IMG/VR virus record: IMGVR_UViG_3300030329_000083
Span: 1 to 64,000 of that record
DNA: 64,000 nt
Origin: a virus
Reading direction: 5' to 3' (one strand)
Within the stretch, counting starts at the first letter, position 1. Every line of letters starts with the position of its first letter. The notes below the pieces were generated by a model that saw only the letters and a program-made list of their open reading frames with translations, searched no databases and was not told the origin of the DNA. The position numbers were made by a program, and so were the translations under genes. Below are positions 1 to 63,894 of the stretch, piece by piece.

Positions 1-1584
1 ATAGAAGGAACAGGTAAAACACAAAACACAGTGACCTTTCATCCTGCACTAGTTGCTGCAAAAAAGATGGAAAAGAAGATACACGATCAACTAGAAGAGT
101 CTGGTGCTAATAAACAACTTAGAAGTACAGCTTTTGAAATGTCTTTGTTTGGTACAGGTATTATGAAAGGTCCGTTTGCTATTGACAAAGAGTATCCAAA
201 CTGGAATGACGATGGTGAGTATGATCCTTTAATTAAAACTGTGCCATCTACTAATCATGTTTCTATATGGGACTTCTACCCTGATCCTGACTCACAAAAC
301 ATGGACGAGGTTGAGTTTGTTGTAGAGAGACACAAAATGTCTCGTATGCAAATGAGAGCATTAAAGATGCGTCCTTTCTTCAGATCTGAGTCGGTAGATA
401 GAGCTATAGAACTCGGTCCTGCCTACGAGAAAAAGTACTGGGAAGATGACATGATAGACTACACTACTCAGCAATACATTGATAGATATGAAGTGCTTGA
501 GTTTTGGGGATACGTAGGTAGTTCTACCCTTGAGGAAAATGGTTTAGACATACCTGCTGATTTAAAAGATATGGAGCAACTTAATGTCAATATATGGGTA
601 TGTAATGGAGAAGTATTACGTTTGGTACTCAATCCGTTTAAACCAGTTCGTATACCTTACTATGCCGTACCATATGAGCTTAATCCCTACAGTTTCTTTG
701 GTGTGGGAATTGCTGAGAATATGGACGATACACAGACTTTAATGAATGGTTTTATGCGTATGGCTATTGATAACGCAGCCCTTAGTGGTAACTTAATTAT
801 TGAGGTTGATGAAACTAATCTAGTTCCAGGACAGGATCTATCAGTATATCCAGGAAAGATATTCCGTAGACAAGGTGGCGCACCAGGACAAGCTATATTT
901 GGCACAAAGTTTCCAAACGTAGCAGGAGAGAATATGCAACTGTTTGACAAAGCTAGAGTGCTTGCAGACGAAAGTACAGGCTTTCCAAGTTTTGCTCACG
1001 GACAGACAGGTATACAGGGTGTAGGTAGAACTGCATCAGGTATATCAATGTTAATGTCAGCAGCTAATGGTTCTATCAGAAACGTAGTTAAGAATGTTGA
1101 TGATTATCTGTTAGCACCACTAGGTAAGGCTTTCTTTAGCTTTAATATGCAGTTTGACTATGATAATAGTATTAAAGGTGATTTAGAGGTTAAAGCACAG
1201 GGTACAGAAAGTCTAATGGCTAACGAAGTGCGTAGCCAAAGACTAATGCAGTTCTTACAAGTTGCGTCTAATCCTGCACTAGCACCTTTTGCTAAGATGG
1301 ATTACATCATTAGAGAGATAGCTAAGAGTATGGACTTAGACCCTGACAAAGTAACTAACAGCTTACAGGACGCAGCTATACAAGCTGAGATACTAAAACA
1401 GTTTCAACAACCTGCTCCTCCTCCAGTTCCTCCTGAAGGTATGCCTACTGAGGGTCAACCACAGCCTGAAGCTCCTCCACCTGCAGGAGCTAATGTGCAA
1501 GATACATCAGGTGGTGGCGGTAGTCAAATAGGTGTAGGCACAGCACCGTTACCACAAGAAGAAGGTTTCTCAGGTAATGCCTAA
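1..1584 (+). CDS. Portal protein, copy A (5'-truncated by window edge)
   Basis: Frame open from base 1 (IEGTGKTQNTVTFHPAL) and collinear with the C-terminal part of the full-length 704-aa ORF at 53339, which follows the terminase; position before scaffold/capsid. Confidence 0.85.
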   Translation: MEGTGKTQNTVTFHPALVAAKKMEKKIHDQLEESGANKQLRSTAFEMSLFGTGIMKGPFAIDKEYPNWNDDGEYDPLIKTVPSTNHVSIWDFYPDPDSQNMDEVEFVVERHKMSRMQMRALKMRPFFRSESVDRAIELGPAYEKKYWEDDMIDYTTQQYIDRYEVLEFWGYVGSSTLEENGLDIPADLKDMEQLNVNIWVCNGEVLRLVLNPFKPVRIPYYAVPYELNPYSFFGVGIAENMDDTQTLMNGFMRMAIDNAALSGNLIIEVDETNLVPGQDLSVYPGKIFRRQGGAPGQAIFGTKFPNVAGENMQLFDKARVLADESTGFPSFAHGQTGIQGVGRTASGISMLMSAANGSIRNVVKNVDDYLLAPLGKAFFSFNMQFDYDNSIKGDLEVKAQGTESLMANEVRSQRLMQFLQVASNPALAPFAKMDYIIREIAKSMDLDPDKVTNSLQDAAIQAEILKQFQQPAPPPVPPEGMPTEGQPQPEAPPPAGANVQDTSGGGGSQIGVGTAPLPQEEGFSGNA

Positions 1585-1774
1585 TTTAAAACCCTTAGTT
1601 AATAATAACGAACTCTATGATAATTTTTTAGAAGAGTTGGATCTTCAAATAAGAGTTTACACTAGAGGTTTAGAACAAGCAAATACTTTAGTAGATGTGC
1701 ATAGGCTTCAAGGCAGTATATATGCTTTGCGAAAACTAGAAAAATTAAAGGAACAAGTTAATGGCTCAAAATAA
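1577..1774 (+). CDS. Small conserved head-module protein, copy A
   Basis: 65 aa overlapping the portal stop; 'VDVHRLQGSI.ALR' conserved in copy B (55443-55661). Confidence 0.75.
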   Translation: MPNLKPLVNNNELYDNFLEELDLQIRVYTRGLEQANTLVDVHRLQGSIYALRKLEKLKEQVNGSK

Positions 1775-4637
1775 TACAGCAGAACAAATGGAGATGGCTT
1801 TCATGCAAGAAGGCGGCTTGAAAGATGATGGAGCTGTTACCGATCCTGTAAGTGGCAATGAAGTCCCTAGTGGTAGTATGGATCAAGAAGTAAGAGATGA
1901 TGTCCCTGCTATGTTGAGCGAAGGTGAATACGTTGTACCTGCTGATGTCGTTAGGTTTCACGGAGTTAAACTGTTTGAAGACTTACGCATACAAGCTAAA
2001 ATGGGTATGGCTAAGATGGAAGCTGAAGGACGCATAGGTGGTGAGCCTATAGATGGTGAAGACATGGAGGATGACGATGAGTTACCTTTTGATGTAACAG
2101 AGTTGCGTGTAATAGAAACACCTGTTAGAGAGATGGCTGAAGGTGGAGATGTAGGTGAGGTTGGACCTACGTTTACATATAATCCTAACACACGATACAT
2201 GGAAAGACAAAGAACCACCTCTGGTTTTGAGATGAGAGTTTATGTTGATCCTGCCACAGGTAGACAGATAACTATACCTTTCTTTAATGGGCAACCTATG
2301 TCAACAATACCTCAAGGTTTTGTACTAGCTTCAGATCAAGCTGCAGCACAGAAAACTTTATCTGAACAAGAGATGCAACAGATGCAACAAGATCCTGCAT
2401 CAAAAAGATTCTTCTTACCACCTGACCCTAAAGAAGTTAAGCGAGGCTTTGATGCTTTTACTGCAGAGGATTGGAATAACTACGTAAAACAAGCTGATGG
2501 TCAACTTGCAGCATTTACAGCTAACATACCTATCTTAGGGACGCTACAAAGACTTAGTGAGTCTTCAGCAAAAGCATATGCTGAAAGAGCATTAAAGACA
2601 GGTGTGCATCCTGCTACAAATAAAGCTTTAACTCCACAAGAGGTAACTGCACTAAAAAGTGTTTTAAATAGTTCTATCACAGAAAGAAAGAGTATACTAG
2701 AATCTATAGGTGATTTGTTCAAAGGTGAGCCAGATCAGAACATGTCTCCTAGACCTGACTTTAAACCTATAACGGCTGCACAAATGCCACAAGCAAATAT
2801 AATGACTGAAGAAAGTCCTACTATGAGTGCTATAATGGCAGGATTCAATAAAGACAAAAGTGGTGATACTGTTGGACAACAGTTTGCTAGTAGAGCAGAT
2901 GTGGTAAGCGATGTTACTCCTTTGGCTGCAGGACCAGTTAATATTACTGATCCTACTTTAAGTATTCTTTTAGACGAAGCTAGTGTTTCTAGTTTAGACG
3001 ATATAAAAAATAGTGGTAGCATAGCACGTAGGGAGGCTTTTGATGGAGATTCTGCTCTTAGAACAAATGCAGAAGGTGAAACTATTTTTAAAGCTTATAA
3101 AGACTCAGAGGGTTATTGGACTGTTGGTCCTGGAATATTATTGGGGACAGTAGACAAAAAGGGTAATCAGACAGTATCTGAAGAGGCTATACAAAAAGAT
3201 TACACTGAAGAATTTGTTAAAGATGAATTTGTAAAAAGTTTAAATGAGGCTACAAATTACATTGACAATAAATATAATGCTGATCTTATGCCACCTTTAG
3301 CAAGAGCTACATTGATAAATATGCGTTTTCAATTGGGTAATAGATTTGAAACTTTTACTCAATTAGATAGAGCAATCAAAGAAGGAAACTTTACGGAAGC
3401 TGCAAAACAAGTCTTAGGTAATTATAAAGTAGGAGATAAATTTGCTTTTTCTACTGATTCAGGTGCAGAATCAATAGGTCCAACTTTATATGCAACACAG
3501 ACTACAAATAGAGCTAGAAGACATGCAACTAGATTTGATCTTGTAGCTTCACAGTACGGTAAATTAACACCTGCTACACCACCAAGACCTGATAGATTTG
3601 GAGCAGACGTACCTGCACCACCAAGCTTTATACAAGGAATGGATGCAGTTCCAGAAGGAGGTGCAGCTATACCTTACACAACTGACGCAGCAGGTTTTGC
3701 AGGAGACATACCTCCACCTGTAGCATCACCTGTAGCACCTGTAAGTGGAGGTAGTATACCCACAATGGAATACATAGAGTCCATGTTAAGCGGAGCTAAT
3801 ATAGATACAAGCATTGCTCCTAATGTTAGAGACTTAATCCGTAGACAACGTGGAGTTCCACCTATAGCTACTGAAGGCGGTTTTCCACCAGAGGTTAATA
3901 TACAAGCTCCATCTATTCAAACTGCACCTCAGTTAGGTCAAACATCAAAACCTATTCAAACTGCACCTCAGTTAGGTCAAGCACAAACAGATATAACAAC
4001 TAGTACAAAAGCACCTAAGTTACCAAAAGAACCAAAAATATCTGACTCTCAGTTTAAGTTAGGTCAGGTTTCGCCACCATCTATGTCTTTGGAAGTTCCA
4101 CAACTAGAATTACCAAAATTTGAGTCTCTTCCTAGTGTTGATAAAACAGCTCCAAAATCTATAGAAGATTTTGAGCCATTGGGAGAATCAAAATTACCTC
4201 GTGGTTTTGGACCTACCACTAGAAGAGTATTAGGATCACAAGGCGGTGCTAAACCTGTTGAAAAAGATAAGACTGTATCTGAAACAAAAAAAGATCAAAG
4301 CATAAATAAAAATCCTGAGAATACATCTTTTACATCTGCAGCGTCTAATGATGACATAATACAAAAGACAGCTAGAAAGAGTGATATAGGAGATACTAAT
4401 GTACAAATTAGGTTGGCTAAAATACTCTACGCTAAAAATCAAGCTAAAAACGCAGGAGTAGATATAACATTTAAAGATAGTGACTTTGATAAACAAGGTT
4501 TCTTTAAACCTAAGAGTAAAGAGTTACAAAAGTATAAAGCTAAAGGATTATCAAGTACAGGGTTTGACCCTTTAGCAAATAAAAAAGCTACTGGAGGCTT
4601 AATAGACAGGAGAGCAAAAAAGAAGAAGAAAACCTAA
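1761..4637 (+). CDS. Large internal virion protein with T4-type (GH24) lysozyme domain, copy A
   Basis: N-terminal DPVSGNEVP..DDVPAMLSEGEYVVPADVV domain; YKDSEGYWTVGPG, ATLINMRFQLG and LYATQTTNRARR resemble T4 lysozyme YKDTEGYYTIGIG, ALINMVFQMG, WYNQTPNRAKR. Confidence 0.75.
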   Translation: MAQNNTAEQMEMAFMQEGGLKDDGAVTDPVSGNEVPSGSMDQEVRDDVPAMLSEGEYVVPADVVRFHGVKLFEDLRIQAKMGMAKMEAEGRIGGEPIDGEDMEDDDELPFDVTELRVIETPVREMAEGGDVGEVGPTFTYNPNTRYMERQRTTSGFEMRVYVDPATGRQITIPFFNGQPMSTIPQGFVLASDQAAAQKTLSEQEMQQMQQDPASKRFFLPPDPKEVKRGFDAFTAEDWNNYVKQADGQLAAFTANIPILGTLQRLSESSAKAYAERALKTGVHPATNKALTPQEVTALKSVLNSSITERKSILESIGDLFKGEPDQNMSPRPDFKPITAAQMPQANIMTEESPTMSAIMAGFNKDKSGDTVGQQFASRADVVSDVTPLAAGPVNITDPTLSILLDEASVSSLDDIKNSGSIARREAFDGDSALRTNAEGETIFKAYKDSEGYWTVGPGILLGTVDKKGNQTVSEEAIQKDYTEEFVKDEFVKSLNEATNYIDNKYNADLMPPLARATLINMRFQLGNRFETFTQLDRAIKEGNFTEAAKQVLGNYKVGDKFAFSTDSGAESIGPTLYATQTTNRARRHATRFDLVASQYGKLTPATPPRPDRFGADVPAPPSFIQGMDAVPEGGAAIPYTTDAAGFAGDIPPPVASPVAPVSGGSIPTMEYIESMLSGANIDTSIAPNVRDLIRRQRGVPPIATEGGFPPEVNIQAPSIQTAPQLGQTSKPIQTAPQLGQAQTDITTSTKAPKLPKEPKISDSQFKLGQVSPPSMSLEVPQLELPKFESLPSVDKTAPKSIEDFEPLGESKLPRGFGPTTRRVLGSQGGAKPVEKDKTVSETKKDQSINKNPENTSFTSAASNDDIIQKTARKSDIGDTNVQIRLAKILYAKNQAKNAGVDITFKDSDFDKQGFFKPKSKELQKYKAKGLSSTGFDPLANKKATGGLIDRRAKKKKKT

Positions 4638-4638
4638 A

Positions 4639-4688
4639 GTAGTAGTGAGTACTACCTTATGGCTACTTGACCACTGCGGTCAACCCCA
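4639..4688 (+). promoter_or_regulatory. Two-hairpin leader upstream of the scaffold RBS
   Basis: gtagta/tactac and tgg-ctac-ttgacc/ggtcaa-cc-cca stems; 67 bp (4635-4701) identical to 61057-61123. Confidence 0.6.
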
Positions 4689-4706
4689 ACAAAAGGAGTA
4701 AATAAT

Positions 4707-5615
4707 ATGCCAGAATTAGCAGAAGTAGAACCAGTAAAGAAAGCAGGATTTGTTAGTCCACGCAAAACTAATCAAGAACAGCGTATCGAAAAGGACGAAA
4801 AAGAACTTCAAGAACTTATTGCTAAAGCAAAAGGAGAGAAATCTCAAGAAGGAACTGAAGAACAGCAAAATACAGAATCTGCTCAAACGAGTAAAAAAGA
4901 TGAAGTACAAGAAGAGGCTCTTGGTAAAGAAGAGCAATCTTTTAAAAAGAGATATGGTGACTTACGTAGACATCTATCATCTAAAGAGAAAGAGTGGCAA
5001 TCTCGAATAGAAGCGTTGGAAGGTCAACTAAATAAAGCAGCTAAAAATGAATTAGTGTTGCCAAAGTCTGACGAGGAGATTGATGCTTGGGCTAAACAGT
5101 ATCCTGATGTTGCAGGAATTGTTGAAACCATAGCTGATAAAAAAGCTAAAGAAAGATCTATAGAGTTAGATGAAAGAGTAAAACAAATTGAAGAGATGCG
5201 TTTTACTGCTACTAAAGAAAAGGCTGAAGCAGAGTTAATGAGGCTTCATCCTGACTTTGCTGAAATAAGAGAGTCAGATGACTTTCACGACTGGGCTGAG
5301 TCTCAACCTAAAGTTATACAAGATGCTCTATACGAAAATGCAGATGATGCCAAATCAACGGCTGCTGTCATTGACTTGTATAAACATCACAAAGGAATAA
5401 GTAAACCTAAGAAGACTTCAAGTGATAAAAATGCAGCTACTGCTGTTAATGTTCGCTCTAAGACTTCTCCTGTTTCTGACGATACTAAGAACCAGTGGTC
5501 TGAATCACAAGTTGAGAAGATGACTGATAAAGAGTACGCAAAAAATTCTGAGGCTATAATGGAATCAATTAGAGCAGGAAAGTTTATTTACGATATTAGT
5601 GGTGCTGCACGATAA
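4707..5615 (+). CDS. Capsid scaffolding protein, copy A
   Basis: Acidic, coiled-coil-like 302 aa immediately upstream of the major capsid gene; FKKRYGDLRRH motif; AGGAG RBS. Confidence 0.7.
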   Translation: MPELAEVEPVKKAGFVSPRKTNQEQRIEKDEKELQELIAKAKGEKSQEGTEEQQNTESAQTSKKDEVQEEALGKEEQSFKKRYGDLRRHLSSKEKEWQSRIEALEGQLNKAAKNELVLPKSDEEIDAWAKQYPDVAGIVETIADKKAKERSIELDERVKQIEEMRFTATKEKAEAELMRLHPDFAEIRESDDFHDWAESQPKVIQDALYENADDAKSTAAVIDLYKHHKGISKPKKTSSDKNAATAVNVRSKTSPVSDDTKNQWSESQVEKMTDKEYAKNSEAIMESIRAGKFIYDISGAAR

Positions 5616-5622
5616 AAAAGTG

Positions 5623-5650
5623 TTGACATTGTGTAGTTTATCACTATAAC
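5623..5650 (+). promoter_or_regulatory. sigma70-type promoter for the capsid operon
   Basis: TTGACA-16-TATAAC; conserved in copy B (62009-62036). Confidence 0.7.
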
Positions 5651-5654
5651 TAAT

Positions 5655-5820
5655 AGCATACACCTAATGATGGGTGTGTGCTTTTCAAGCAAACAATACC
5701 CTAAAGCTTACCAAAGTTGTATAAGCCTAGAGGACAGAGCGTAGCGCAACGCTTCAAACTTTACACCTTATTAATACTTTGCCCTTACTGAGTATGTTTA
5801 GCTTATAATCATAAGCCTAA
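5655..5820 (+). ncRNA. Structured cis-regulatory RNA in the major capsid 5' leader (putative)
   Basis: Three stems with compensatory changes relative to copy B (62041-62206). Confidence 0.65.
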
Positions 5821-5842
5821 CTTATTTATAAGGAGGACTATC

Positions 5843-6916
5843 ATGGCTTTTAAAACTGCAGCAGGTTACGGCAATTTACCTAATGGTAATTTCTCGCCAG
5901 TAATCTATTCTAAGCAGGTTCAATTAGCCTTCCGTAAAAATACTGTAGTCGGTTCGATTACCAATAGTGATTACTTTGGTGAGATTTCCGCTATGGGTGA
6001 TACAGTAAGGATCATAAAAGAACCTGAAATCACCGTTAAAGAGTATGCTCGTGGAGCGCAAATCACTCCGCAAGATCTCGATGACGAGGACTTCACACTA
6101 GTTGTGGACAAAGCAAACTACTTTGCTTTTAAAATGGACGATATTGAAGAAGCACATTCTCATGTGAACTTTTCACAGTTAGCTTCTGATCGTGCCGCAT
6201 ATCGGTTAGCCGATCAATATGACCAAGAAGTTCTTGGATACCTCTCAGGCTTTAAGCAATCAAGCATAAGCTCTCTAGCAGGTACAGCAAACGACACTGT
6301 TTCAGGGTCAAAGGCTGTGTCTACTGCAGGGTCTGACGAATTGCTAACAAGCATGAAGTTGAGAAAAGACTCTTTTGGTAACATCACCACATCAAGTGCA
6401 GGTGATCATTCTATCCCACTTGCTCCACGTATGGGCGGTGCAACATCGCAAGCTACTGCGACTGCTACACCATTGCAAGTTATTGCTAGAATGGGCAGAC
6501 TACTTGATACACAGTTTGTGGATACACAAGGTAGATGGTTGGTACTACACCCAACATTCGTTGAAATTCTGAAGGACGAAGACTCTCGTCTTCTAAATGC
6601 AGACTTTGGCGAATCAGGTGGACTACGAACAGGTCTAACTATTGGCAGAATACACGGATTTGATGTGTACATGTCTAATAATCTACCATCTGTAGGTACT
6701 GGTCCAGGAACTTCAGGTTCAGCAAACCAGAACTCAAACTTTGGTGTTATCGTAGCAGGTCATAGTTCAGCAGTTGCGACTGCAGAGCAGATCAACAAAA
6801 CTGAGTCATATCGTGACCCTGACAGCTTTGCTGACATTGTTCGTGGTATGCATTTGTACGGCAGAAAGATTCTCAGACCAGAGGCTCTTGTAACTGCTAA
6901 ATATAACGTAGCGTAG
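5843..6916 (+). CDS. Major capsid protein, copy A
   Basis: 357 aa; NFSPVIYSKQV, GDTVRI, IHGFDVYMSNNLP, RDPDSFADIVRGMHLYGRKILRPEAL typical of HK97-fold (P22/N4 gp56-like) coats; strong AGGAGG RBS. Confidence 0.9.
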   Translation: MAFKTAAGYGNLPNGNFSPVIYSKQVQLAFRKNTVVGSITNSDYFGEISAMGDTVRIIKEPEITVKEYARGAQITPQDLDDEDFTLVVDKANYFAFKMDDIEEAHSHVNFSQLASDRAAYRLADQYDQEVLGYLSGFKQSSISSLAGTANDTVSGSKAVSTAGSDELLTSMKLRKDSFGNITTSSAGDHSIPLAPRMGGATSQATATATPLQVIARMGRLLDTQFVDTQGRWLVLHPTFVEILKDEDSRLLNADFGESGGLRTGLTIGRIHGFDVYMSNNLPSVGTGPGTSGSANQNSNFGVIVAGHSSAVATAEQINKTESYRDPDSFADIVRGMHLYGRKILRPEALVTAKYNVA

Positions 6917-6929
6917 GGAGGGATAAACA

Positions 6930-7460
6930 ATGGCAACTTATGATATGACATCTTCCAGTACTGTTGGTGTTTCTTCTAACTCTATAGCGGCTTTACCTAG
7001 TGAAACAGGTATGGGCGCAATGCGAATGGTTCAAGCTTATTTGGACATTGACGCTTTGGTAGCCGCAGGTTACTCTGGTGCAGACGGTGACGTTTTTCAA
7101 CTACTTGAAATCCCTGCAGGATGCTTAGTGCTATTTGCAGGTGCTGAAGTAGAGAAAGCATTTACTTCTAGCTGTACCTTAGACATGGACTTTGGCGGTG
7201 GTGATGACATCATTGATGGTGCTGACATTACCTCAACTGGGTTCTGTGCTGAAGGTACAAACGGACAGTCAAATGACGTTACTACTGGTGCAGCCTCAAC
7301 ATTTACACAATTTGTATCTACTACTGATACTATTGATTGTACGATTGCAGGTGCTGCTCCTGCTACAGGAAGATTACGAGTGTACGCTTGTTTAATCGAC
7401 TGTAACGATGTAGGTTCAGCAGACAGGGCTACTGACGTAGACCGTGACCAATTAGCTTAA
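6930..7460 (+). CDS. Putative capsid decoration/cement protein, copy A
   Basis: 176 aa directly after the MCP and before a terminator; highly conserved in copy B. Confidence 0.55.
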   Translation: MATYDMTSSSTVGVSSNSIAALPSETGMGAMRMVQAYLDIDALVAAGYSGADGDVFQLLEIPAGCLVLFAGAEVEKAFTSSCTLDMDFGGGDDIIDGADITSTGFCAEGTNGQSNDVTTGAASTFTQFVSTTDTIDCTIAGAAPATGRLRVYACLIDCNDVGSADRATDVDRDQLA

Positions 7461-7470
7461 TTTAACAACT

Positions 7471-7497
7471 GGGAGGGCATTAAGTTGCCCTCCTTTT
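7471..7497 (+). terminator. Rho-independent terminator after capsid genes
   Basis: ggagggca-ttaagt-tgccctcc followed by TTTT; conserved at 63846-63873. Confidence 0.8.
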
Positions 7498-7512
7498 ACT
7501 ATAAGAGATAAT

Positions 7513-9961: not shown

Positions 9962-12454
9962 ATGGGAGCAACTTACACAAGACAATCATCATATAGTGAC
10001 GGTGATGTTATCACAGCCGCACACACTAATGACGAGTTTAATCAGTTATTAGCAGCGTTTCAGGCAACTACAGGTCACACACATGATGGCACAGCAAATG
10101 AAGGTGGACCAATTACTAAGCTACTTGGTAACACACTTACGTTTGGTGCAGGTACAGCAGGTACAGATATTACTATCACCTTTGATGGTGAAACTACTGA
10201 TGGTGTTCTCAAGTGGATGGAAGATGAAGACTACTTTGAGTTTTCAGATGATATACTTGTAGCCTCAGATGAAAAGATACAGTTTCGTGATACTGCTATT
10301 ACTATTAACTCTAGCACTGATGGTCAACTAGACTTAGTAGCTGATGGTGCTGTGTCTATTGATGCAGGTACAGACATTATACTAGACGCTGATGGTGCAG
10401 ATGTTTTATTAAAAGATGCAGGTACACAGTATGCATCCTTTACAAATAGTTCAGGTAATCTTGTAATTAAATCTGGTAGCACTACTGCTATGACTTTTGA
10501 CGGTGCTAATGTTACATTCTCAGGAACTGTGACAATAGGTAGTGCAGGTATATCAGAGGCAGAGCTAGAAATACTAGATGGTGCTACTGTAACTACTGAT
10601 GAGTTAAATATACTAGACGGTGTTACAGCTACTACTGCTGAACTTAATATTATGGACGGTGACACTTCAGCTACCTCTACTACAGTAGCTGATGCGGATA
10701 GAGTTGTGTTTAATGACGCAGGAACTATGAAGCAAGTAGCAGTTACTGACTTAGCTGCATACTTTGACGATGAGATAACTGCAATGCCAAACCTAGTCAC
10801 CACTGCTGCAACTACAGTTGGTGCATTAGATAGTGGTTCTATAACAAGTGGCTTTGGTACAATAGACACAGGTTCTTCTACTATAACAACAACAGGTGCT
10901 ATTACAGGTGGTTCTTTAGTAGCAGATAATATAACTATTGATGGCACAGAGATTGATTTATCATCTGGAGACTTGACAATAGATGTTGCAGGTGATATAA
11001 TACTAAACACAGATGATGGTATAGTTTCATTACAAGATGCATCTGCTACATTTGGTTCACTAGAAAACTCATCAGGTAACTTAGTTGTTAAGTCAGGCAC
11101 AACAACAGCCTTGACATTTAGTGGTGCAAATGTTACAATAGCAGGTGACTTAACAATTAGTGGTGATGACCTAACTATGGGTACTAATACTAGTGGTCAC
11201 ATCATGGTAGCAGATGGTACTAACTTTAATCCTGTAGCTGTATCAGGTGATGTAACAATGGCATCAAACGGTGCAGTAACAATAGCAAACGGTGCTGTTG
11301 AAACTGCAATGATAAATGCAAATGTAATTACAGGGCAAACTGCTGAAACATCTCTTGATACATCTAATGATGTCATACTTATACATGATGCTTCTGCTAG
11401 TGCATTAAGAAAGACAACACTTGCATCTATATCTTCTGCTCTTGGTGGTATTACAGATGTAGTTGCAGATACATCACCACAGTTAGGTGGTAACTTAGAT
11501 ACTAACTCGCACAATATACTTATTGATGATGCACACTTTATAGCAGACGAAAATGGTAATGAGCAGATTATCTTTCAAACAACATCATCTGCTGTCAATC
11601 AATTTGATATAACTAATGCTGCAACAGGTAATGCTCCTGAGTTATCTGCAACAGGTGGTGACACAAACATTAGTTTAAAGATAACACCAAAAGGTTCAGG
11701 ACAAGTTTTACTAGATGGTAATGTTGGAGTTGAGTCTGGACTAATTGATTTAAAGAACTCAGGTTCTAGGTCACAAATAAAATTCTACTGTGAGTCTGGT
11801 AATGCTCACGCACAAACATTACAGGCTGCGCCACATTCAGAGGCTGCATCAAACACTTTAACATTACCAAGTACAGGCGGTGACGTTGACTTAGTTTCAA
11901 CAGCTTCTACTGCTACACTAACTAATAAGACACTAACAAGTCCAAAGATAAACGAAGATGTAGCAGTAACAGCCACAGCAACAGAGATAAATCTATTAGA
12001 TGGAGTAACATCTACAACTTCAGAACTTAACATATTAGATGGTGTTACATCAACTGCTTCAGAGTTAAACTTAGTTGACGGTTCATCTGCAGGTACGATA
12101 GTAAATAGTAAAGCAGTTATATACGGTTCTAGTGGTGAAGTAAATGCAACAACATTACAGATAGCAGGAACATCTATTACATCAACTGCTGCTGAATTGA
12201 ATATCTTAGATGGTGTTACCTCAACTGCAGCAGAACTTAATATCTTAGATGGAGTTACATCCACAGCAACAGAACTAAATGTTATGGATGGTGATACGTC
12301 TGCTACATCCACAACGCTTGCAGACGCAGACAGGTTAGTAACAAACGATGCAGGAACAATGAAGCAGGTTGCATTAACAGATGTGAAAACATATTTAACC
12401 AGTGCAGGGTTTACTACAGATGACCCAACGGCACTTGCGATTGCCCTTGGATAG
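9962..12454 (+). CDS. Tail fibre protein
   Basis: GHTHDG N-terminal motif, Thr/Gly/Ser-rich, 14-aa ELNILDGVTST(A) repeats, DTSPQLGGNLD motif, C-terminal ALAIALG. Confidence 0.75.
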   Translation: MGATYTRQSSYSDGDVITAAHTNDEFNQLLAAFQATTGHTHDGTANEGGPITKLLGNTLTFGAGTAGTDITITFDGETTDGVLKWMEDEDYFEFSDDILVASDEKIQFRDTAITINSSTDGQLDLVADGAVSIDAGTDIILDADGADVLLKDAGTQYASFTNSSGNLVIKSGSTTAMTFDGANVTFSGTVTIGSAGISEAELEILDGATVTTDELNILDGVTATTAELNIMDGDTSATSTTVADADRVVFNDAGTMKQVAVTDLAAYFDDEITAMPNLVTTAATTVGALDSGSITSGFGTIDTGSSTITTTGAITGGSLVADNITIDGTEIDLSSGDLTIDVAGDIILNTDDGIVSLQDASATFGSLENSSGNLVVKSGTTTALTFSGANVTIAGDLTISGDDLTMGTNTSGHIMVADGTNFNPVAVSGDVTMASNGAVTIANGAVETAMINANVITGQTAETSLDTSNDVILIHDASASALRKTTLASISSALGGITDVVADTSPQLGGNLDTNSHNILIDDAHFIADENGNEQIIFQTTSSAVNQFDITNAATGNAPELSATGGDTNISLKITPKGSGQVLLDGNVGVESGLIDLKNSGSRSQIKFYCESGNAHAQTLQAAPHSEAASNTLTLPSTGGDVDLVSTASTATLTNKTLTSPKINEDVAVTATATEINLLDGVTSTTSELNILDGVTSTASELNLVDGSSAGTIVNSKAVIYGSSGEVNATTLQIAGTSITSTAAELNILDGVTSTAAELNILDGVTSTATELNVMDGDTSATSTTLADADRLVTNDAGTMKQVALTDVKTYLTSAGFTTDDPTALAIALG

Positions 12455-34756: not shown

Positions 34757-34784
34757 ATTATACACTATATATCTTTTGTGTCAA
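34757..34784 (-). promoter_or_regulatory. sigma70-type promoter
   Basis: TTGACA-16-TATAAT on the minus strand; TGATTCG at 34747-34753. Confidence 0.7.
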
Positions 34785-44815: not shown

Positions 44816-44843
44816 ATTTTATAGATGATTCGTTTTTTGTCAA
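44816..44843 (-). promoter_or_regulatory. sigma70-type promoter with GANTC in the spacer
   Basis: TTGACA-16-TAAAAT on the minus strand; TGATTCG at 44826-44832. Confidence 0.65.
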
Positions 44844-47392: not shown

Positions 47393-47421
47393 TTGACAAC
47401 TTTATGATTCTATGGTATAAC
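47393..47421 (+). promoter_or_regulatory. Rightward sigma70 promoter (lysis/packaging arm)
   Basis: TTGACA-17-TATAAC with extended -10 TG; imperfect palindrome gtgacaatatgtcgc abuts the -35. Confidence 0.7.
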
Positions 47422-47513: not shown

Positions 47514-47563
47514 CTTGTGTTTTTTGCATTAATATGTTATTATAAAGCAAATAATGTTTGACA

Positions 47564-47851
47564 ATGAGTAAAAAGAAGGTAAAACTATATGCAAGTGACT
47601 CGGTTATTGAAGATTTTTACAGGACTCTCTCTAAAAATGACCCTAACATCCTCAATAAAGTCCACATACCGAAGTCTGATGTCTTTTATGTACGTAAAGC
47701 TATAGAAATGCGTACAGGAGAGACATATAGTTTAGACCATGTAGAAAGGGCTATGTTTCTGGAAGGACATTTACGTAGAAATGAAGTCTTAGATCCAGAT
47801 AGACCAAGAGGATATTGCTCATATGACACCGAAAAACCTAGAACAAGATAG
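47564..47851 (+). CDS. Hypothetical protein
   Basis: First ORF of the rightward arm; ATG at 47564. Confidence 0.55.
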   Translation: MSKKKVKLYASDSVIEDFYRTLSKNDPNILNKVHIPKSDVFYVRKAIEMRTGETYSLDHVERAMFLEGHLRRNEVLDPDRPRGYCSYDTEKPRTR

Positions 47852-50506: not shown

Positions 50507-50743
50507 ATGCCAATGGGAAAAGGTACGTATGGAAGTAAAGTAGGAAGACCGCCTAAAAAAGGTAAAGCTAAAAAAGGTAAAGAAGAAGAGCTACTAGACA
50601 AAAAAGGCATGAAGGGTAAGAAAAAGCCTTCTGCTGCTGTTATAATAGCTATGAATAAAGGTGGACAGATGGGTAAACAAGCTGTTCGTCAAAAAATGGG
50701 CTTTATGAACAAAGGCGGCAAAGTAGGAAAAAGTAAAAAATAA
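50507..50743 (+). CDS. Small basic protein
   Basis: MPMGKGTYGSKVGRPPKK; two MNKGG motifs. Confidence 0.6.
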   Translation: MPMGKGTYGSKVGRPPKKGKAKKGKEEELLDKKGMKGKKKPSAAVIIAMNKGGQMGKQAVRQKMGFMNKGGKVGKSKK

Positions 50744-51025
50744 TGTTTTTAAAAAAGGGGATTACTAAAATGAAAAGATACTTAAAACGTATATACTGCG
50801 CAATACTTAATCGTAAGTGTTGTGAAAAATGCAACTGTAATGAGTAGAAGGACAGCACCACTTAGTTTAACACTGTGGAACGCAATGTCTGTGAAGTGTG
50901 TAGACACACTATGTCTGTCGTTGATGGTAGACTAGAGTGTTCTTACTGTTTAGTATTCTATAATTTTGAAAATTCAAAAGCGTGGTTAGAACACCTTTAC
51001 GATAAAAAACACGAAAAGGATAAAC

Positions 51026-53338: not shown

Positions 53339-55453
53339 ATGGCAACAGAAGAAGAACTAAACTTTGATACAGATGAAGTGTCTGTTATAGAGGATGGAGA
53401 TAAAGCATTACGTGATCCTTCCTCTATAGAAGCTTTTATAATGGAAAGGTTTACCAGAGCAGAAGATGCTAGAAAAACAGATGAAGATCGTTGGACTAAA
53501 GCTTATAGAAACTATAGAGGTTTATATGGATCAGATGTTCAGTTTACGGAAGCAGAAAAGTCTAGGGTATTTATAAAAGTAACTAAAACTAAAACTCTTG
53601 CAGCATATGGTCAGATAATTGATGTGCTTTTTGGTAATAATACGTTTCCACTATCTGTAAATCCTACAAGACTACCAGACGGTGTAGCAGAAGCAGTACA
53701 CATTAACACTGATCCTAATGCAGATCAAGCAACAGAACAGTTAAAAGCTGTTTCTGAAGATAAGCCTTCTCAACCCTATCTTTTTGGTCCTGACACAGAG
53801 TTAAAAAAGGGTGAAACTATAATAGATCTGCAAGAAAGGCTTGGTTCGTTAAAAAATAAACTAGAGCCTGTCTCAGATAAAATTATAGAAGGGGAAGGCA
53901 CAACAGGTACGACTGTTACTTTTCACCCTGCGTTAATTGCAGCTAAAAAAATGCAAAAGAAGATACACGATCAGTTGGAAGAGTCTGGTGCTAATAAGCA
54001 TTTAAGAAACACAGCTTTTGAAATGTCTCTATTTGGTACAGGGGTTATGAAAGGTCCATTTGCTATGGACAAAGAATATCCTAATTGGAGTGAAGAAGGT
54101 GAATATGATCCCTTAATTAAAACTGTACCGTGTACCAATCATGTATCTATATGGGATTTTTATCCTGACCCTGATGCTAAAAACATGGATGAGGCTGAGT
54201 ATGTAGTGGAAAGACACAAGATGTCTAAAATGCAACTCAGGGCATTAAAGATGCGTCCATACTTTAGAACAGAATCTATAGACAATGCTATTGAACTGGG
54301 AGCATCTTACACTAGAAAGCACTGGGAAGATGATATGACTGACTACGTTACATCACAAGCAGTAGAAAGATATGAAGTACTAGAATTTTGGGGATACGTT
54401 GATGCTGAAAAACTACAACTAAGCGGTCTTGATATTCCTAAAGAATTAAAAGATATGGAGCAACTAAATGTCAATATATGGATATGTAACGGAGAGATAT
54501 TACGCTTGGTTCTTAATCCATTTAAACCAGTACGGATACCCTACTATGCCGTACCTTATGAACTTAATCCCTATAGTTTCTTTGGTATAGGCATAGCTGA
54601 AAACATGGATGATACGCAAACCTTAATGAATGGGTTTATGCGTATGGCTATTGACAATGCAGCTTTGAGTGGTAACCTTATTATTGAAGTAGATGAAACT
54701 AACCTAGTTCCAGGACAAGATCTATCAGTATATCCAGGAAAAGTGTTTAGAAGACAAGGTGGCGCTCCAGGACAGGCTATATTTGGAACAAAGTTTCCGA
54801 ATGTTGCAGGAGAAAACATACAACTGTTTGACAAAGCAAGAACATTAGCAGACGAGAGTACAGGCTTTCCTAGTTTTGCACACGGACAAACAGGTGTACA
54901 AGGTGTAGGTAGAACTGCATCAGGTATATCTATGCTTATGTCAGCAGCAAATGGGTCTATCAGAAATGTTGTAAAGAATGTAGATGACTATTTGCTTGGT
55001 CCTCTAGGTAAAGCTTTCTTTAGTTTTAATATGCAGTTTGACTTTGACACTGAAATAAAAGGTGATCTAGAAGTTAAAGCTCAAGGCACAGAAAGCTTAA
55101 TGGCTAATGAAGTACGTAGTCAAAGGCTCATGCAATTCTTACAAACAGCATCTAACCCTGCTCTTGCTCCTTTTGCTAAGATGGATTACATTATAAGAGA
55201 GATAGCTAAGAGTATGGACTTAGACCCTGATAAAGTAACCAATAGCTTACAAGATGCAACAATACAAGCTGAAATACTTAAAGGTTTTCAAGCTCCTGCT
55301 CCTGCTGCACCTCCTGCTGCTGCTCCAACTGAAGCTCCACCTGCTCCTGCAGGAGGCGGTGTACAAGACACTACTGGTGCAGGGGGAGGAACGATAGGTA
55401 CAGGTGTTGCACCGTTACCGCAAGAAGAAGGCTTTACAGGTAATGTCCAATAA
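53339..55453 (+). CDS. Portal protein, copy B (full length)
   Basis: 704 aa directly after TerL; collinear with 1-1584. Confidence 0.85.
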   Translation: MATEEELNFDTDEVSVIEDGDKALRDPSSIEAFIMERFTRAEDARKTDEDRWTKAYRNYRGLYGSDVQFTEAEKSRVFIKVTKTKTLAAYGQIIDVLFGNNTFPLSVNPTRLPDGVAEAVHINTDPNADQATEQLKAVSEDKPSQPYLFGPDTELKKGETIIDLQERLGSLKNKLEPVSDKIIEGEGTTGTTVTFHPALIAAKKMQKKIHDQLEESGANKHLRNTAFEMSLFGTGVMKGPFAMDKEYPNWSEEGEYDPLIKTVPCTNHVSIWDFYPDPDAKNMDEAEYVVERHKMSKMQLRALKMRPYFRTESIDNAIELGASYTRKHWEDDMTDYVTSQAVERYEVLEFWGYVDAEKLQLSGLDIPKELKDMEQLNVNIWICNGEILRLVLNPFKPVRIPYYAVPYELNPYSFFGIGIAENMDDTQTLMNGFMRMAIDNAALSGNLIIEVDETNLVPGQDLSVYPGKVFRRQGGAPGQAIFGTKFPNVAGENIQLFDKARTLADESTGFPSFAHGQTGVQGVGRTASGISMLMSAANGSIRNVVKNVDDYLLGPLGKAFFSFNMQFDFDTEIKGDLEVKAQGTESLMANEVRSQRLMQFLQTASNPALAPFAKMDYIIREIAKSMDLDPDKVTNSLQDATIQAEILKGFQAPAPAAPPAAAPTEAPPAPAGGGVQDTTGAGGGTIGTGVAPLPQEEGFTGNVQ

Positions 55454-55661
55454 CCTAAAGCCTTTAGTTAATAATAAAGAACTTTATGATTCTTTTAAAA
55501 ATGAAATAAACACACAAATACTAATGTATAGTAGGTCATTAGAACAGGCTAGTACATTAGTAGATGTACACAGGCTACAAGGTAGCATCAATGCGTTACG
55601 AAGATTACTACAACTGAAAGAACAAGTTAATGGCAGTGAACCCTCAAACACAACCAAATGA
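55443..55661 (+). CDS. Small conserved head-module protein, copy B
   Basis: MSNNLKPLVNN.. homolog of 1577-1774. Confidence 0.7.
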   Translation: MSNNLKPLVNNKELYDSFKNEINTQILMYSRSLEQASTLVDVHRLQGSINALRRLLQLKEQVNGSEPSNTTK

Positions 55662-58600
55662 CCTAAATACCCAAACTGAAGAGGCTATGGGATTAAGGGG
55701 TATGGCTGAAAAAACTATAGGTAAAAAAGCTACTGGTGTAGCTGACTTTGTACCTATTGTAGGGGATGTATTAGCAGCAGGTGATGTTGTTGAAAGTGCT
55801 AAAAAAGGTGACGTACTAGGAACAGCAGTTAATACTGCAGCAATGGCATTAGGTGTAGTTCCTGTAGTAGGAGACTTAGCAGGTAAAGGGCTAAAAGCAG
55901 GATTAAAAGCGGCTCGTACAGGTAAATCTCCTGTAAGAAAGCTTTTTGATAAGCTCCCAAAAAAAGAAAAAGATGAGCTTCCTGCACAACCAGACGAAGA
56001 CAGTTTATGGGGGTATCACGGTACAGCTAGAGAAAGAGGACCAGATGAACCTTTTTTTGATATTGGCTTTGCTAGGAAGCAGGATCAGTTTTTAGGTGAA
56101 GGTTACTATTTTACTATAGACCCTAAAGTAGCAGAAGAATATGCTAACATGAGAGCATTAGATCTTGGAGGATCAGCAAAAACAGCTAGAAATATAGAAG
56201 GTCAAGAAGCTATAAAGCTAATGAATGACCCTAAAGCTACTCATGTGGGATCAGCGTTTACTACAAATCCTAGTAAGGCAATGATAACCGTAGATAAAGC
56301 AGGTAACTATGTAACTCCAAGTAGTGTTATGGGAGGTACAGACATATATGGAAACCCTATATCTAAAGGTCAGAACATAGCTAGGTTTAATTTATCTAAT
56401 TTAGAAAAGCCTTTTTTGGTTAAGACAGCAGCAGATAGAAAAAGACTAAAAGAAAATTTTCAGGAAATAAAAGACGAAGGCTATGACTCTGTTTTGTTTG
56501 CTGACTTTAAAGACCGATCAAAACAAATTATGGTGTTTCCTGAACATATCGGAAAAGTTACAGGAGATATTGCTAAAGACGTTGGTGAAGTGGGTACACC
56601 CAAAGTACCAAGAGTAACTACACCTAAAATATCAAATATTGACTATCAAAAAAAGATGGCAGAGTTTGATAAGGTAGATAATGTTGACGATTGGCAAACA
56701 AATGTAGAAAAATACGTTGAGGAATCTAGGGATGTAAATCCTACTATACGTACCCCTGAATTAGAAAATTCTGCAAAAGATTTACTTGATGGTAAAATTA
56801 CTAGAGAACAACACTTAGATAATATTGATAAATATAAACCTGTTGATCCTTGGGATGCTCTACCAAGAGAGCCATCAAGTAAAGCTACAGTATTTTCTTT
56901 AAAATCAAACCAAATAGAAAAAGGTAAATTTATATTACCTAAGGAAGCTACTAAAAATCTAGGTGTTTCTAAGTCCTCTTTAAAAATAGGAGATAAATTT
57001 AACGGTAGACTAGACATACCTGCGTATAATAAATATGACACTTGGATTGTAGCAGGTACATCTACGGCTGAAAAGGGTGTAACGCACTATGCAAAAGCTA
57101 TACACTATAAAGGTGTAGGAGATAAGCCTGTAAGATTTGCTGCCTCTCAAGAAATGTCAAAAAGAATTGGAACAGGTGTAGAGGGTAAAACTGGGTATGC
57201 TACAGTATCTGGTGAAATAAAAAATCTCAATGTAGAAGAAATAAGAGAATTAGCAACTAAAGTTTTAAATGATCCTGAGTGGACACAAGTGGGATTTGAC
57301 CCTAGAAGACAGGGTGGTTTCTATGTGCGTAACCAAAAAAATAAACATGTACCTGTTCGTGAAGCGGATGAGGTTATACAAATAGGTCCACTAGTATTAG
57401 CTAAAAATGCTACACTGGATTTAACGCACAAAGGTTTTAACAAAGGTGGGATAGTACCAATGGAATTACAACAACAAACACAAATGGCTTTCATGCAAGA
57501 AGGAGGAGATGTTAATAGAACAGGTGCTATGTTTGTACCTGAGTCTCCTGAAGAAGAAAAAGAGAAGCCTAAACAATTAGGTACAGTTGAAGAACAAGCA
57601 GGTTTAGTTCAAACAGAAGAAGAAGATCCACAAATGGATGTAGCTTTTATGCAAGAGGGTGGTTTAACTGATGATGGAGCTACTATTGATCCTGTAAGTG
57701 GTAACGAAGTTCCTACAGGAAGCATGGATCAAGAAGTAAGAGATGACGTTCCTGCTATGTTAAGTGAAGGTGAATACGTTGTACCTGCTGACGTTGTAAG
57801 ATTTCACGGTGTAAAACTATTTGAAGACCTTAGAAAGGAAGCTAAAAGAGGCATGGCTAAAATGGAAAAGGATGGCAGGGTAGGTGGCGAACCTATGTCT
57901 GAAGAAGACTTTGAAGGAGAAGAACTACCTTTTGACGTATCAGAGTTACAAACTGTAGGCGCAGATCGTGTAAGAGGTATGGCTGAAGGTGGTGAAGTAG
58001 AAGGTGCTATAGGTCCAGAAATAGTTTCTACTGGTTCTCAAGTGTACGGTGAAGGAGCTAGGCTTAGACAAAATACAGGTTTTGAAATGAAGAAATACTA
58101 CGAGCCTTCTACAGGTAGAGTTATAGTTTTTCCTTTCTTTAATGGTAAACCTATGAGTGTTATTCCTGATGGTTTTGAGCCTTACTCTGGTCAAGATAAA
58201 AAACCTGCTCAACCACAACAAACAGGTGGAGGTAGGAGCGATCCTCCATATAAACCTTTTAAGCCTAATGAGCCTAGAAAGTTTGGCTTTGGTTCGTGGT
58301 CTGCTCAAGATTATGTAGATGCAACAGACAGTACTAAGAGTGGTCTAGGAAAAGTTGCTAGTGCGCTTATTCCTTTTATCGGTATGAGCCACGCTTCAGG
58401 TAGAAAATATATTGAAGATGTAATGGATATGGAAAAAAACCCTGCCCAACTTAACCCTGCAACAGGGCAAAAGATAACTGACTTAGACAGAATAGCTATG
58501 GTAAGGTATTATACTAATCCACCACCTCCAAGTGTAATGCAAAGACTAGTTAGGTTTGTAAGTGGAAAGCAAGACCTTACTGAAGATGATTCTTATGGTT

Positions 58601-61059: not shown

Positions 61060-61128
61060 AGTAGTAGTGAGTACTACCTTATGGCTACTTGACCACTGCG
61101 GTCAACCCCAACAAAAGGAGTAATTAAA

Positions 61129-62001
61129 ATGGCAGAATTAGCAGAAGTACAACCAGTAAAAACGGCAGGGTTTGTAAGTCAACGTAAGACTAAAAACCAA
61201 GAACGCATTGAGAAGGATGAAAAAGAACTTCAAGACCTTGTTGAGCAAAACAATGAAGAAGTAACAAAAAATTCTAAAGCTGCGGATAAGGACGAAACAC
61301 AAGAGGAAAGTCTTAGCAAAGAAGAAGGCTCATTTAAAAAGCGATATGGCGATTTACGCAGACATATGGCAACTAAAGAGAAAGAGTTTCAAACTAGGAT
61401 AGAAACACTAGAAGGTCAGCTAGATAAAGCTACTAAGAATGAACTAGTTCTTCCTAAAACAAATGAAGAAATTGAAGCTTGGGCTAAACAATACCCTGAT
61501 GTTGCATCAATAGTTGAAACAATAGCGGATAAAAAAGCTCAAGAACGATCTAAAGATTTAGACGAGAGAGTGAAGCAGATAGAAGAAATGCGTTCTAGTG
61601 CTACACGAGAAAAAGCAGAAGCGGAGCTTGTAGCTTTACACCCTGATTTTGCTGACATAAGAGAATCAGACGAGTTTCACGATTGGGCAGAAGCACAACC
61701 TAAGTGGGTACAAGACGCTCTTTATGAAAACTCTGATGATGCTAAGTCTACAGCTAGAGTTATAGACCTTTACAAGTCAGATAAAGGTATGTCAAAGTCT
61801 AAGCAGTCAAATAAGAGTGCTGCGACTGCAATAAACACTCGTTCTAGTTCTTCTCCACCAACAGGAGATAAAAAAGGTAAATGGACTGAATCTCAAGTAG
61901 AAAAAATGTCTGATAGAGAATATGCAAAACATTCTGAAGAAATAATGGAATCTATTAGATCAGGAAATTTTGTATACGATATTAGTGGTGCTGCACGTTA
62001 A
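61129..62001 (+). CDS. Capsid scaffolding protein, copy B
   Basis: Homolog of 4707-5615. Confidence 0.7.
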   Translation: MAELAEVQPVKTAGFVSQRKTKNQERIEKDEKELQDLVEQNNEEVTKNSKAADKDETQEESLSKEEGSFKKRYGDLRRHMATKEKEFQTRIETLEGQLDKATKNELVLPKTNEEIEAWAKQYPDVASIVETIADKKAQERSKDLDERVKQIEEMRSSATREKAEAELVALHPDFADIRESDEFHDWAEAQPKWVQDALYENSDDAKSTARVIDLYKSDKGMSKSKQSNKSAATAINTRSSSSPPTGDKKGKWTESQVEKMSDREYAKHSEEIMESIRSGNFVYDISGAAR

Positions 62002-62008
62002 AAAACTA

Positions 62009-62036
62009 TTGACAATGTGCAATTTATCACTATAAC
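62009..62036 (+). promoter_or_regulatory. sigma70-type capsid promoter, copy B
   Basis: TTGACA-16-TATAAC. Confidence 0.7.
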
Positions 62037-62040
62037 TACT

Positions 62041-62206
62041 AGCATACGTCTGATTATGGATGTATGCTTTTCAAGCAAACGATACCCTAAAGCTTACCAA
62101 AGCCGTATGAGCCTAAAGCTTGAAGTGTAGCGCAACACTTAAATCTTTACACCTTATTAACGCTTTGCCCTTACTGAGTATGTTTAGCTTATAATCATAA
62201 GCCTAA
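62041..62206 (+). ncRNA. Structured capsid leader RNA, copy B (putative)
   Basis: Same stems as 5655-5820 with compensatory substitutions. Confidence 0.65.
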
Positions 62207-62229
62207 CCTATTTATAAGGAGGATTTATT

Positions 62230-63291: not shown

Positions 63292-63303
63292 GGGAGATAA
63301 CTA

Positions 63304-63834: not shown

Positions 63835-63845
63835 ATTTACTAATG

Positions 63846-63873
63846 GGGAGGGCATTAAGTTGCCCTCTCTTTT
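63846..63873 (+). terminator. Rho-independent terminator, copy B
   Basis: gagggca-ttaagt-tgccctc followed by a T-tract. Confidence 0.75.
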
Positions 63874-63894
63874 ATAACATAATAAGGATTAATA

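Follow-up and report, generated by a model that had tools for sequence, protein, structure and literature searches.

What is the role of a leader of about 190 nucleotides that separates a promoter from the start codon of a phage major capsid gene, and what keeps it closer in sequence than the DNA around it? The question arises in the virus record IMGVR_UViG_3300030329_000083 (IMG/VR), and the first 64 kb of this 73.6-kb record constitute the window analyzed here. A block of head genes is present twice in the window (1-7498 and 53885-63874; mutual identity of 77-79%), and in both copies the end of a scaffold-like gene is followed, after a few bases, by a near-consensus host-type promoter, then by the leader, and then by the capsid gene. 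In copy A, the scaffold-like gene (4707-5615) matches phrog_13678, a family of unknown function, the leader region occupies 5616-5842, and the capsid gene (5843-6916) encodes a P22-type protein corresponding to phrog_267; in copy B, the leader region lies at 62002-62229 and is followed by the capsid gene at 62230. The leader almost certainly contains a conserved structured RNA, built from the hairpin elements H1, H2, and H3 and shared by a group of very abundant marine, and some soil, phages. As to its function, a cis-acting translational operator or switch on the capsid mRNA is given about an even chance.

An original prediction, made by comparing the two window copies, had described the leader as a covarying structured RNA. 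The two leaders share a mean column identity of 93% over 265 alignment columns with no large gaps, and a BLAST identity of 87% over 222 nucleotides, compared with 77-79% for the DNA flanking them; that is, the leader is better kept between the copies than its surroundings. The stem differences to which the prediction had drawn attention do preserve pairing. In H1 (5655-5664/5673-5682), a C-G pair is replaced by U-A, and one-sided changes turn A-U into G-U and U-G into U-A; in helix P2 of H2, CAAAGU/ACUUUG is replaced by CAAAGC/GCUUUG (U-A to C-G); and in helix P5, GAGCGU/ACGCUU is replaced by AAGUGU/ACACUU around an invariant AGCGCA loop. Two internal loops of H2, CUUAC opposite CC and CC opposite CAC, are invariant in both copies. 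The predicted folds of copy A (-53.5 kcal/mol, z score -4.09) and copy B (-49.1 kcal/mol, z score -3.90) were each equaled by none of 200 dinucleotide shuffles. Two copies alone are weak evidence, and it is a deep alignment of relatives that provides strong evidence of covariation.

The capsid protein matches at least 599 stretches in IMG/VR. The closest named relatives are those of Puniceispirillum phage HMO-2011 and the Roseobacter phages CRP-345, CRP-1, CRP-9, and CRP-13 (71-74% identity), which agrees with the HMO-2011-type membership supposed earlier; identity drops to 54-59% for other CRP phages and for rhizobiophages. The spacer before the capsid gene is 196-291 nucleotides long in 72 of the 76 leaders with a detectable upstream gene end. 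A covariance model of H2 and H3 (R1; 158 positions, 36 pairs), derived from a seed of 13 sequences with a hand-annotated structure, was searched against the window and against 99 loci that differ in their leaders, accepting E values up to 0.01. It produced 75 matches, corresponding to 73 of the 99 loci plus both window copies, all of them on the coding strand and all ending at the capsid ATG; no other match was found in the 64-kb window, even at E values up to 10. Among the 26 loci missed by R1, 11 pass an independent strict descriptor, and inspection of the other 15 by eye shows the core with minor deviations. Among 101 leaders, 60 fit the strict descriptor, whereas dinucleotide shuffles of them gave 0.85 fits on average. 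An exact two-anchor pattern of the commonest class was detected in at least 120 further IMG/VR stretches, and among the matches listed, 109 of the 115 that could be evaluated sit 61-141 nucleotides upstream of a capsid start.

Named carriers of the element include HMO-2011, CRP-1, CRP-2, CRP-3, CRP-9, CRP-207, CRP-345, CRP-603, Rhizobium phage RHph_N3_13, and Sinorhizobium phage phiM6. It was not found in the Pelagibacter phages HTVC115P and HTVC033P or in Pseudoalteromonas phage Slicky01 (spacers of 58, 31, and 19 nucleotides, respectively), nor was a match found at six distant actinobacterial prophage capsid loci. A blastn search of the leader against 50,697 phage records, a set that may lack those nearest to the window, gave no match, and the leader diverges too fast for a DNA search; the diverged leaders still fold into one architecture. 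In a scan of bacterial and archaeal genomes, relatives appeared only on phage-sized contigs in unrelated metagenome-assembled genomes, besides the distant actinobacterial prophage capsids that lack the element. Such contigs (L308-L316; 20-63 kb) carry the capsid gene and leader in assemblies labeled Neomarinimicrobiota, Methanobacteriota, Saccharibacteria, Bacteroidetes, and others; these are most likely mis-binned phage DNA and hence not evidence of hosts.

Covariation was counted in the 75-row alignment obtained from R1 and compared with 500 shuffles and with controls in which partner columns were slid by 1-3 positions. Paired cells made up 86.8% (66.8% after shuffling), and changes on both sides were seen in 484 cells (160.9 after shuffling). 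The covariation score of 0.455 (0.159 after shuffling) was reached by none of the 500 shuffles, and the slid-partner controls gave at most 0.082; the predicted covariation is thus upheld in the deeper alignment. Double changes occur in all 19 pairs of helices P2-P5, as illustrated by pair 35-153 (GC 49, AU 19, UA 5, CG 2), and the inner helices of H3 covary as well. A mutual-information ranking and the descriptor output agree with these counts; when scanned for pseudoknots or long-range pairs, the top ranks of the former contained only the known helices and class-linked neighbors. Plain MAFFT alignment followed by RNAalifold yielded no more than 6 pairs, since hairpins that vary between leaders were misaligned, and was superseded by the covariance model from the hand-annotated seed.

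Several observations place this signal in an RNA of the coding strand. Over 2411 cells, G-U pairs (219) outnumber A-C mismatches (80), and no open reading frame is conserved. A coding leader was rejected, since the longest ATG open reading frame across the family has a median of 12 codons and attains at least 20 codons in only 16 of 65 leaders. In the window, a frame of 24-25 codons without a ribosome-binding site is open in both leaders (5669-5746 and 62056-62130); it is not conserved in relatives and is probably due to chance. That the RNA belongs to no named Rfam family, as first supposed, is borne out by Rfam 15, which gave no match at threshold in the whole window and none in the leaders of six loci at E values up to 5. 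For the leader alone, the best Rfam hit was the S15 leader (RF00114; 15 bits against a threshold of 39.5, E value 0.28) over H3 and the ribosome-binding site, and the CRP-9 leader scored no more than 14.7 bits. A 22-bit match to the S15 leader at locus L070 falls outside the leader of that locus.

Across the family, the two inverted pyrimidine loops of H2 are the most invariant feature, with the forms 5' YUAC/3' CC and, inverted, 5' CC/3' CAC; the family consensus of the lower loop is (A)CUAC opposite CC. They belong to a repeated module with the order helix, CC, hairpin, (N)YAC, helix. Of 99 leaders, 95 contain this module and 60 contain two or more copies of it (22.5 and 4.0, respectively, in shuffled sets). 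Its copies are positioned about 190 nucleotides (in H1) and about 110 nucleotides (in the upper part of H2) before the ATG, and the lower H2 loop repeats the module in inverted orientation. Between P2 and P3, leaders of the commonest class have a loop of AAGUA opposite GAAAA (columns 40-45 and 142-146 of alignment A5; for example, L063:1882-1888 and 1937-1941) that may correspond to the bulged-G module of the sarcin-ricin or loop E type, which is marked by a purine-rich strand pair between two helices. The window copies have UGUA opposite UUAAU at this place, so the bulged-G-like loop is not family-wide.

A possible link between H2 and translation lies in helix P1, which closes H2 below the lower loop. 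P1 is outside model R1, yet 83.8% of its cells are paired and the helix covaries: pair 24-162 is AU in 50 leaders, CG in 10, GU in 4, UG in 3, and UA in 2 (other 5, gap 1); pair 26-159 is GC in 57, AU in 4, and GU in 1 (other 11, gaps 2); and pair 27-158 is AU in 53, GU in 8, and GC in 6 (other 8). The 3' strand of P1 and the adjoining CC make up a CCUCUU-type stretch that is able to pair with the ribosome-binding site as helix P6; in copy A, CCUUA pairs with UAAGG, which includes the first half of that site. Since P1 and P6 share positions 5784-5786 in copy A, they cannot form together. In constrained folds, the median energy of P1 minus P6 is +1.3 kcal/mol, P1 being the better in 28 of 75 leaders, and the median unpaired probability of the ribosome-binding site over the 75 leaders is 0.24, i.e., the site is predicted to be mostly paired. 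This competition had escaped the original prediction, as had the module copy in H1 of most relatives, the self-complementary apex of H2, and the atypical, plain form of H1 with its U run in the window.

If the leader is a translational operator, it may work as follows. A host-type promoter would start transcription at the foot of H1, which would cap the 5' end and stabilize the message, protection of the 5' end being the most likely role of this hairpin. H2 would serve as a rigid platform whose inverted GCC/YACC loops are recognition sites for a trans-acting ligand, with the third loop copy in H1 of most relatives as a further site. That ligand is most likely a protein, and the pseudo-twofold symmetry and repetition of the loops suggest a dimeric one, of phage or host origin; the head-assembly protein proposed in the original prediction is a conjecture. 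When P1 and the lower loop are formed or stabilized, the CCUCUU stretch would be occupied and the ribosome-binding site open; when P1 is lost, the stretch would hide the site, as is expected for many members in the absence of the ligand. Occupancy of H2 would then set the level of capsid translation, and the topology predicts activation on binding. Capsid synthesis could plausibly be delayed or scaled by such post-transcriptional control. Consistent with an operator, the structured site ends at the capsid ATG in all 75 model matches, adjoins the ribosome-binding site, and has conserved bases that are left unpaired.

A natural rearrangement also ties the element to the start codon. In a freshwater relative (L086; MW202701 from Manatee Spring, 700-1500), an HNH endonuclease gene with its own ribosome-binding site lies between the promoter with an H1-like hairpin and H2, while H2 and H3 remain intact directly before the capsid start. 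This is a natural case in which separation of H1 from H2 is tolerated, and it implies that the role of H2 and H3 is tied to the start codon rather than to the promoter. Similar upstream sequence occurs in L182 and possibly in L163, L173, and L175.

Several points weigh against the operator. P6 can be paired in approximately 90% of cells with almost no covariation, which is attributed to the near invariance of the ribosome-binding site. In approximately one third of the leaders (including L013, L019, L021, L026, L155, L157, L158, L004, L006, L008, and L036), the ribosome-binding site is predicted to be mostly free and P1 is strongly favored, so that a switch cannot be universal. No ligand or binding protein was identified, and the start of transcription is predicted from the position of the promoter. 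Apart from P1, the covariation alignment was fitted to the model structure, and its counts therefore lean towards that structure. H1 of the window lacks the CC/YAC module that most relatives have in theirs; L058, CRP-2, CRP-207, and a small number of others likewise have the plain form, in many cases with a U run after it. Finally, a model of the module (R2), run on the window and on five complete phage genomes, detected no additional significant site, and there is thus no sign of a regulon. Its significant matches in CRP-9, CRP-3, and RHph_N3_13, the last of which is outside the seed, are restricted to the capsid leader. R2 is insensitive to long inner hairpins, and the upper module of the window itself scores 11 bits. 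The best additional R2 matches in the window are two adjacent ones at 50655-50766 on the minus strand (E values of 0.078 and 0.17), antisense to small open reading frames and probably fortuitous. A weak module-like match in CRP-3 (MK613345; 36051-36078, minus strand; 14 bits, E value 0.37) is located in the spacer just upstream of the scaffold-like gene of this phage.

Among the alternatives, a ligand-free structural leader fares best, although it is regarded as unlikely. Here H1 would protect the 5' end, H2 and H3 would only provide the capsid mRNA, which is very highly expressed, with a long life and a defined ribosome landing, and the loops would be elements of a tertiary fold. In line with this, nearly all leaders have H1 right at the 5' end predicted for the transcript, and the leaders with a free ribosome-binding site would need no switch. 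The same holds for the lack of a second site elsewhere in the genomes examined, and for RNA-library contigs from seawater that cover relatives of the capsid gene. These contigs come from four metatranscriptome runs of three studies, and one of them spans 5592-5816, promoter region included; as contigs, they cannot show the start, end, or level of the transcript. However, simple stabilizers seldom keep unpaired loops invariant, and here the loops persist while capsid identity falls to approximately 54% and every helix varies. Recognition or switching is also suggested by the threefold occurrence of one loop module and by the small energy difference between P1 and P6 in many members.

A riboswitch is less probable still, with a low likelihood assigned to it. 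H2 would be the aptamer for a small molecule or ion, possibly for two ligands at its two pseudo-symmetric loops, and the choice between P1 and the anti-Shine-Dalgarno pairing would be the expression platform. The layout is indeed riboswitch-like: the internal loops hold conserved unpaired bases, H2 is closed by a helix (P1) that covaries, and the 3' strand of P1 doubles as the anti-Shine-Dalgarno sequence. Nevertheless, searches at lax thresholds did not match the leader to any Rfam riboswitch family, the restriction of the element to the capsid gene offers no metabolic hint, and the ribosome-binding site is not sequestered in many members.

Equally doubtful is the view that H2 is a processing site for RNase III or RNase E which splits the scaffold and capsid messages, or an antiterminator RNA that modifies the polymerase, with H1 and the U run of the window subclass terminating upstream transcription. 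H2 is a long coaxial stack broken by internal loops, a build shared with phage RNase III sites such as those of T7; a plain H1 followed by 4-6 U occurs in the window, CRP-2, CRP-207, and L008. Against this, a consensus promoter separates the scaffold gene from the element, and the HNH insertion parts H2 and H3 from the promoter but leaves them at the start codon. H1 was not called in a terminator scan of 5000-7500; an intrinsic terminator would have a G+C-rich stem and 5 or more U among the next 8 bases, whereas only four T follow the stem of H1, and H1 of most relatives has no U run. A DNA-level dyad operator or other double-stranded DNA protein site, with the hairpins as mere inverted repeats, is highly improbable: as DNA, the center of H2 often reads as a perfect palindrome around GGCC, GCGC, or GATC, but this enrichment is confined to the H2 apex, the helices change sequence freely while pairing is kept, and the excess of G-U pairs over A-C mismatches would be intolerable for DNA duplex symmetry.

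A self-complementary tetranucleotide is found in the apical loop of H2 in 90 of 120 unique hairpins, whereas shuffling of the loop letters gives 40.9 (maximum 56). The tetranucleotides (a loop may hold more than one) are GGCC (43), GCGC (26), GATC (10), GTAC (4), CCGG (4), AGCT (3), CTAG (3), and TTAA, ACGT, and CATG (1 each). There is no such enrichment in the loops of H3 (19 of 68 against 26.7 shuffled) or the inner loops of H1 (7 of 24 against 7.7 shuffled). The self-complementary apex is thus kept through changes among at least 7 different palindromes, a pattern expected of a kissing loop. It is conceivable, if quite unlikely, that two H2-bearing leaders kiss via their G+C-rich apices and that the resulting twofold-symmetric assembly displays between four and six GCC/YACC loops. 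This RNA assembly, and not the monomer, might then be read by a head protein or host factor, or the assembly might itself sense messenger concentration and couple capsid translation to the amount of late mRNA. If true, this would be the first dimerizing mRNA leader in a double-stranded DNA phage.

The tetranucleotide composition of the window was also recorded. GGCC, CCGG, and CGCG are absent from it (39.9, 23.5, and 17.5 expected, respectively), and GCGC occurs at 0.4 of expectation, with 17 sites of which two are the apical loops of H2 (5744 and 62130); this looks like restriction-site avoidance. Replacement of GGCC by GCGC at the apex under such avoidance fits the window with its lack of GGCC, but was rejected, since other GGCC sites are absent in only 1 of the 32 loci with a GCGC loop.

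Among the known systems close to the leader are autogenous translational operators, such as the T4 gene 32 leader, the E. coli thrS operator, and ribosomal-protein leaders. The leader resembles them in having a structured 5' leader just upstream of the ribosome-binding site with conserved unpaired recognition bases, and resembles thrS in having two similar sites suited to a dimeric protein; it differs in that no sequence or model match links them and in that the predicted topology favors activation on binding, not repression. In phage Mu, Com activates translation of mom by means of a small hairpin bound by this zinc-finger protein. Both cases concern a phage late function, a maskable ribosome-binding site, and a trans factor (only proposed for the leader) that stabilizes the unmasking fold, but the platform of the leader measures 130 nucleotides and repeats its loop module, and a Com-like factor was not identified. 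With phage P22, the precedent named in the original prediction, the leader shares a P22-like head-assembly gene cluster, a P22-type coat, and, as proposed here, post-transcriptional control. However, the message regulated by the P22 scaffolding protein is the scaffold's own, whereas the element precedes the capsid gene; the likeness is an analogy only, and we know of no defined RNA structure of this leader kind in P22. The ompA and T7 gene 10 leaders have 5'-terminal stabilizing hairpins. H1 resembles these in that the gene is very highly expressed and the predicted start of its transcript lies only a few bases from the hairpin; the likeness covers H1 only, not H2, H3, the invariant loops, or the module. 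The dimer-initiation sites of retroviruses have self-complementary kissing loops with a six-base core. The H2 apex likewise has a G+C-rich self-complementary core, often flanked by A, in which palindromes interchange; its core has four bases and lies in the messenger of a double-stranded DNA phage.

The leader was accordingly rated as a new, uncharacterized RNA family that would work like known translational operators and is unusual in its repeated module and palindromic apex. A screen of IMG/VR (Fremin, Bhatt and Kyrpides 2023, PMC10690425) yielded 8495 candidate structured RNAs, and the leader may be listed anonymously among them; 879 of the candidates precede genes with known domains by no more than 25 bases. 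The main text of that paper discusses only the GP20 and GP32 leaders, with one occurrence of "capsid" and none of "coat" or "HMO". No description of the capsid leader RNA was found among the papers listed in searches of the literature on HMO-2011-type phages, which are among the most abundant phage groups of the ocean (PMC9038755). The available portions of this main paper on the group contain no mention of intergenic, promoter, untranslated region (UTR), secondary structure, or riboswitch, and the only transcriptome work found for these phages, a pelagiphage study, has nothing on the capsid or promoter in its available text.

The leader spans phages of SAR116 and Roseobacter to rhizobiophages and is attached to the most highly expressed late gene, and thus offers a testable handle on how capsid synthesis is timed and scaled from host-type promoters. 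Because the GCC/YACC module and the palindromic apex are features of no RNA family that could be matched, they may define a new RNA-protein or RNA-RNA recognition module. The leader is also a compact and portable candidate part for translation control in Alphaproteobacteria, and experiments are feasible, since cultured phage-host pairs carry it (HMO-2011, CRP-1, CRP-2, CRP-3, CRP-9, and phiM6). The features of both window copies are compiled in Table 1.

Table 1. Positions of the capsid leader features in the window, with the basis of each assignment where given.
Feature	Position	Strand	Description and basis
Sigma-70-like promoter A	5623..5650	+	-35 TTGACA 5623-5628, 16-nucleotide spacer, -10 TATAAC 5645-5650; sequence
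H1 copy A	5655..5682	+	12-bp plain hairpin at or near predicted transcript 5' end, then UUU 5683-5685; fold
A/C-rich linker A	5686..5703	+	Predicted single-stranded; fold
H2 copy A	5704..5786	+	Five helices P1-P5; fold, model R1 match, covariation, descriptor
H2 copy A, P1	5704-5706/5784-5786	+	
H2 copy A, P2	5712-5717/5776-5781	+	
H2 copy A, P3	5721-5725/5767-5771	+	
H2 copy A, P4	5728-5732/5759-5763	+	
H2 copy A, P5	5737-5742/5749-5754	+	
H2 lower internal loop A	5707..5711	+	5' side CUUAC; opposite CC 5782-5783
H2 upper internal loop A	5726..5727	+	5' side CC; opposite CAC 5764-5766
H2 apical loop A	5743..5748	+	AGCGCA, self-complementary GCGC core
H3 copy A	5783..5833	+	Closing helix P6 5783-5787/5829-5833; apical stem 5801-5806/5811-5816; fold
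Ribosome-binding site A	5830..5836	+	AAGGAGG; capsid start codon 5843-5845
Promoter-like site B	62009..62036	+	-35 62009-62014, -10 62031-62036
H1 copy B	62041..62068	+	Fold
H2 copy B	62090..62172	+	P1 62090-62092/62170-62172; P2 62098-62103/62162-62167; P3 62107-62111/62153-62157
H2 loops B	CUUAC 62093-62097 opposite CC 62168-62169; CC 62112-62113 opposite CAC 62150-62152; apical 62129-62134	+	
H3 copy B	62169..62219	+	Ribosome-binding site 62216-62222; start codon 62230-62232

In addition to these features, a GCAAAC-type core in the linker recurs across several leader classes when read by eye, and a promoter of sigma-70-like form is located upstream of H1 in 65 of 75 leaders. HMO-2011-type phages are not known to have an RNA polymerase of their own. 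Near-consensus host-type promoter sites are found 7 times in the window, compared with 0.49 expected; further matches lie at 34757-34784 and 44816-44843 on the minus strand and at 10973-11001, 47393-47421, and 47558-47585 on the plus strand, and the divergent cluster at approximately 44.8-47.6 kb probably marks the early region. Between the portal and scaffold genes, a large gene encodes 958 amino acids in one head-gene block and 1809 amino acids in the other, and the record has the appearance of an assembly from two related phages that exceeds one genome length, or of two genomes joined.

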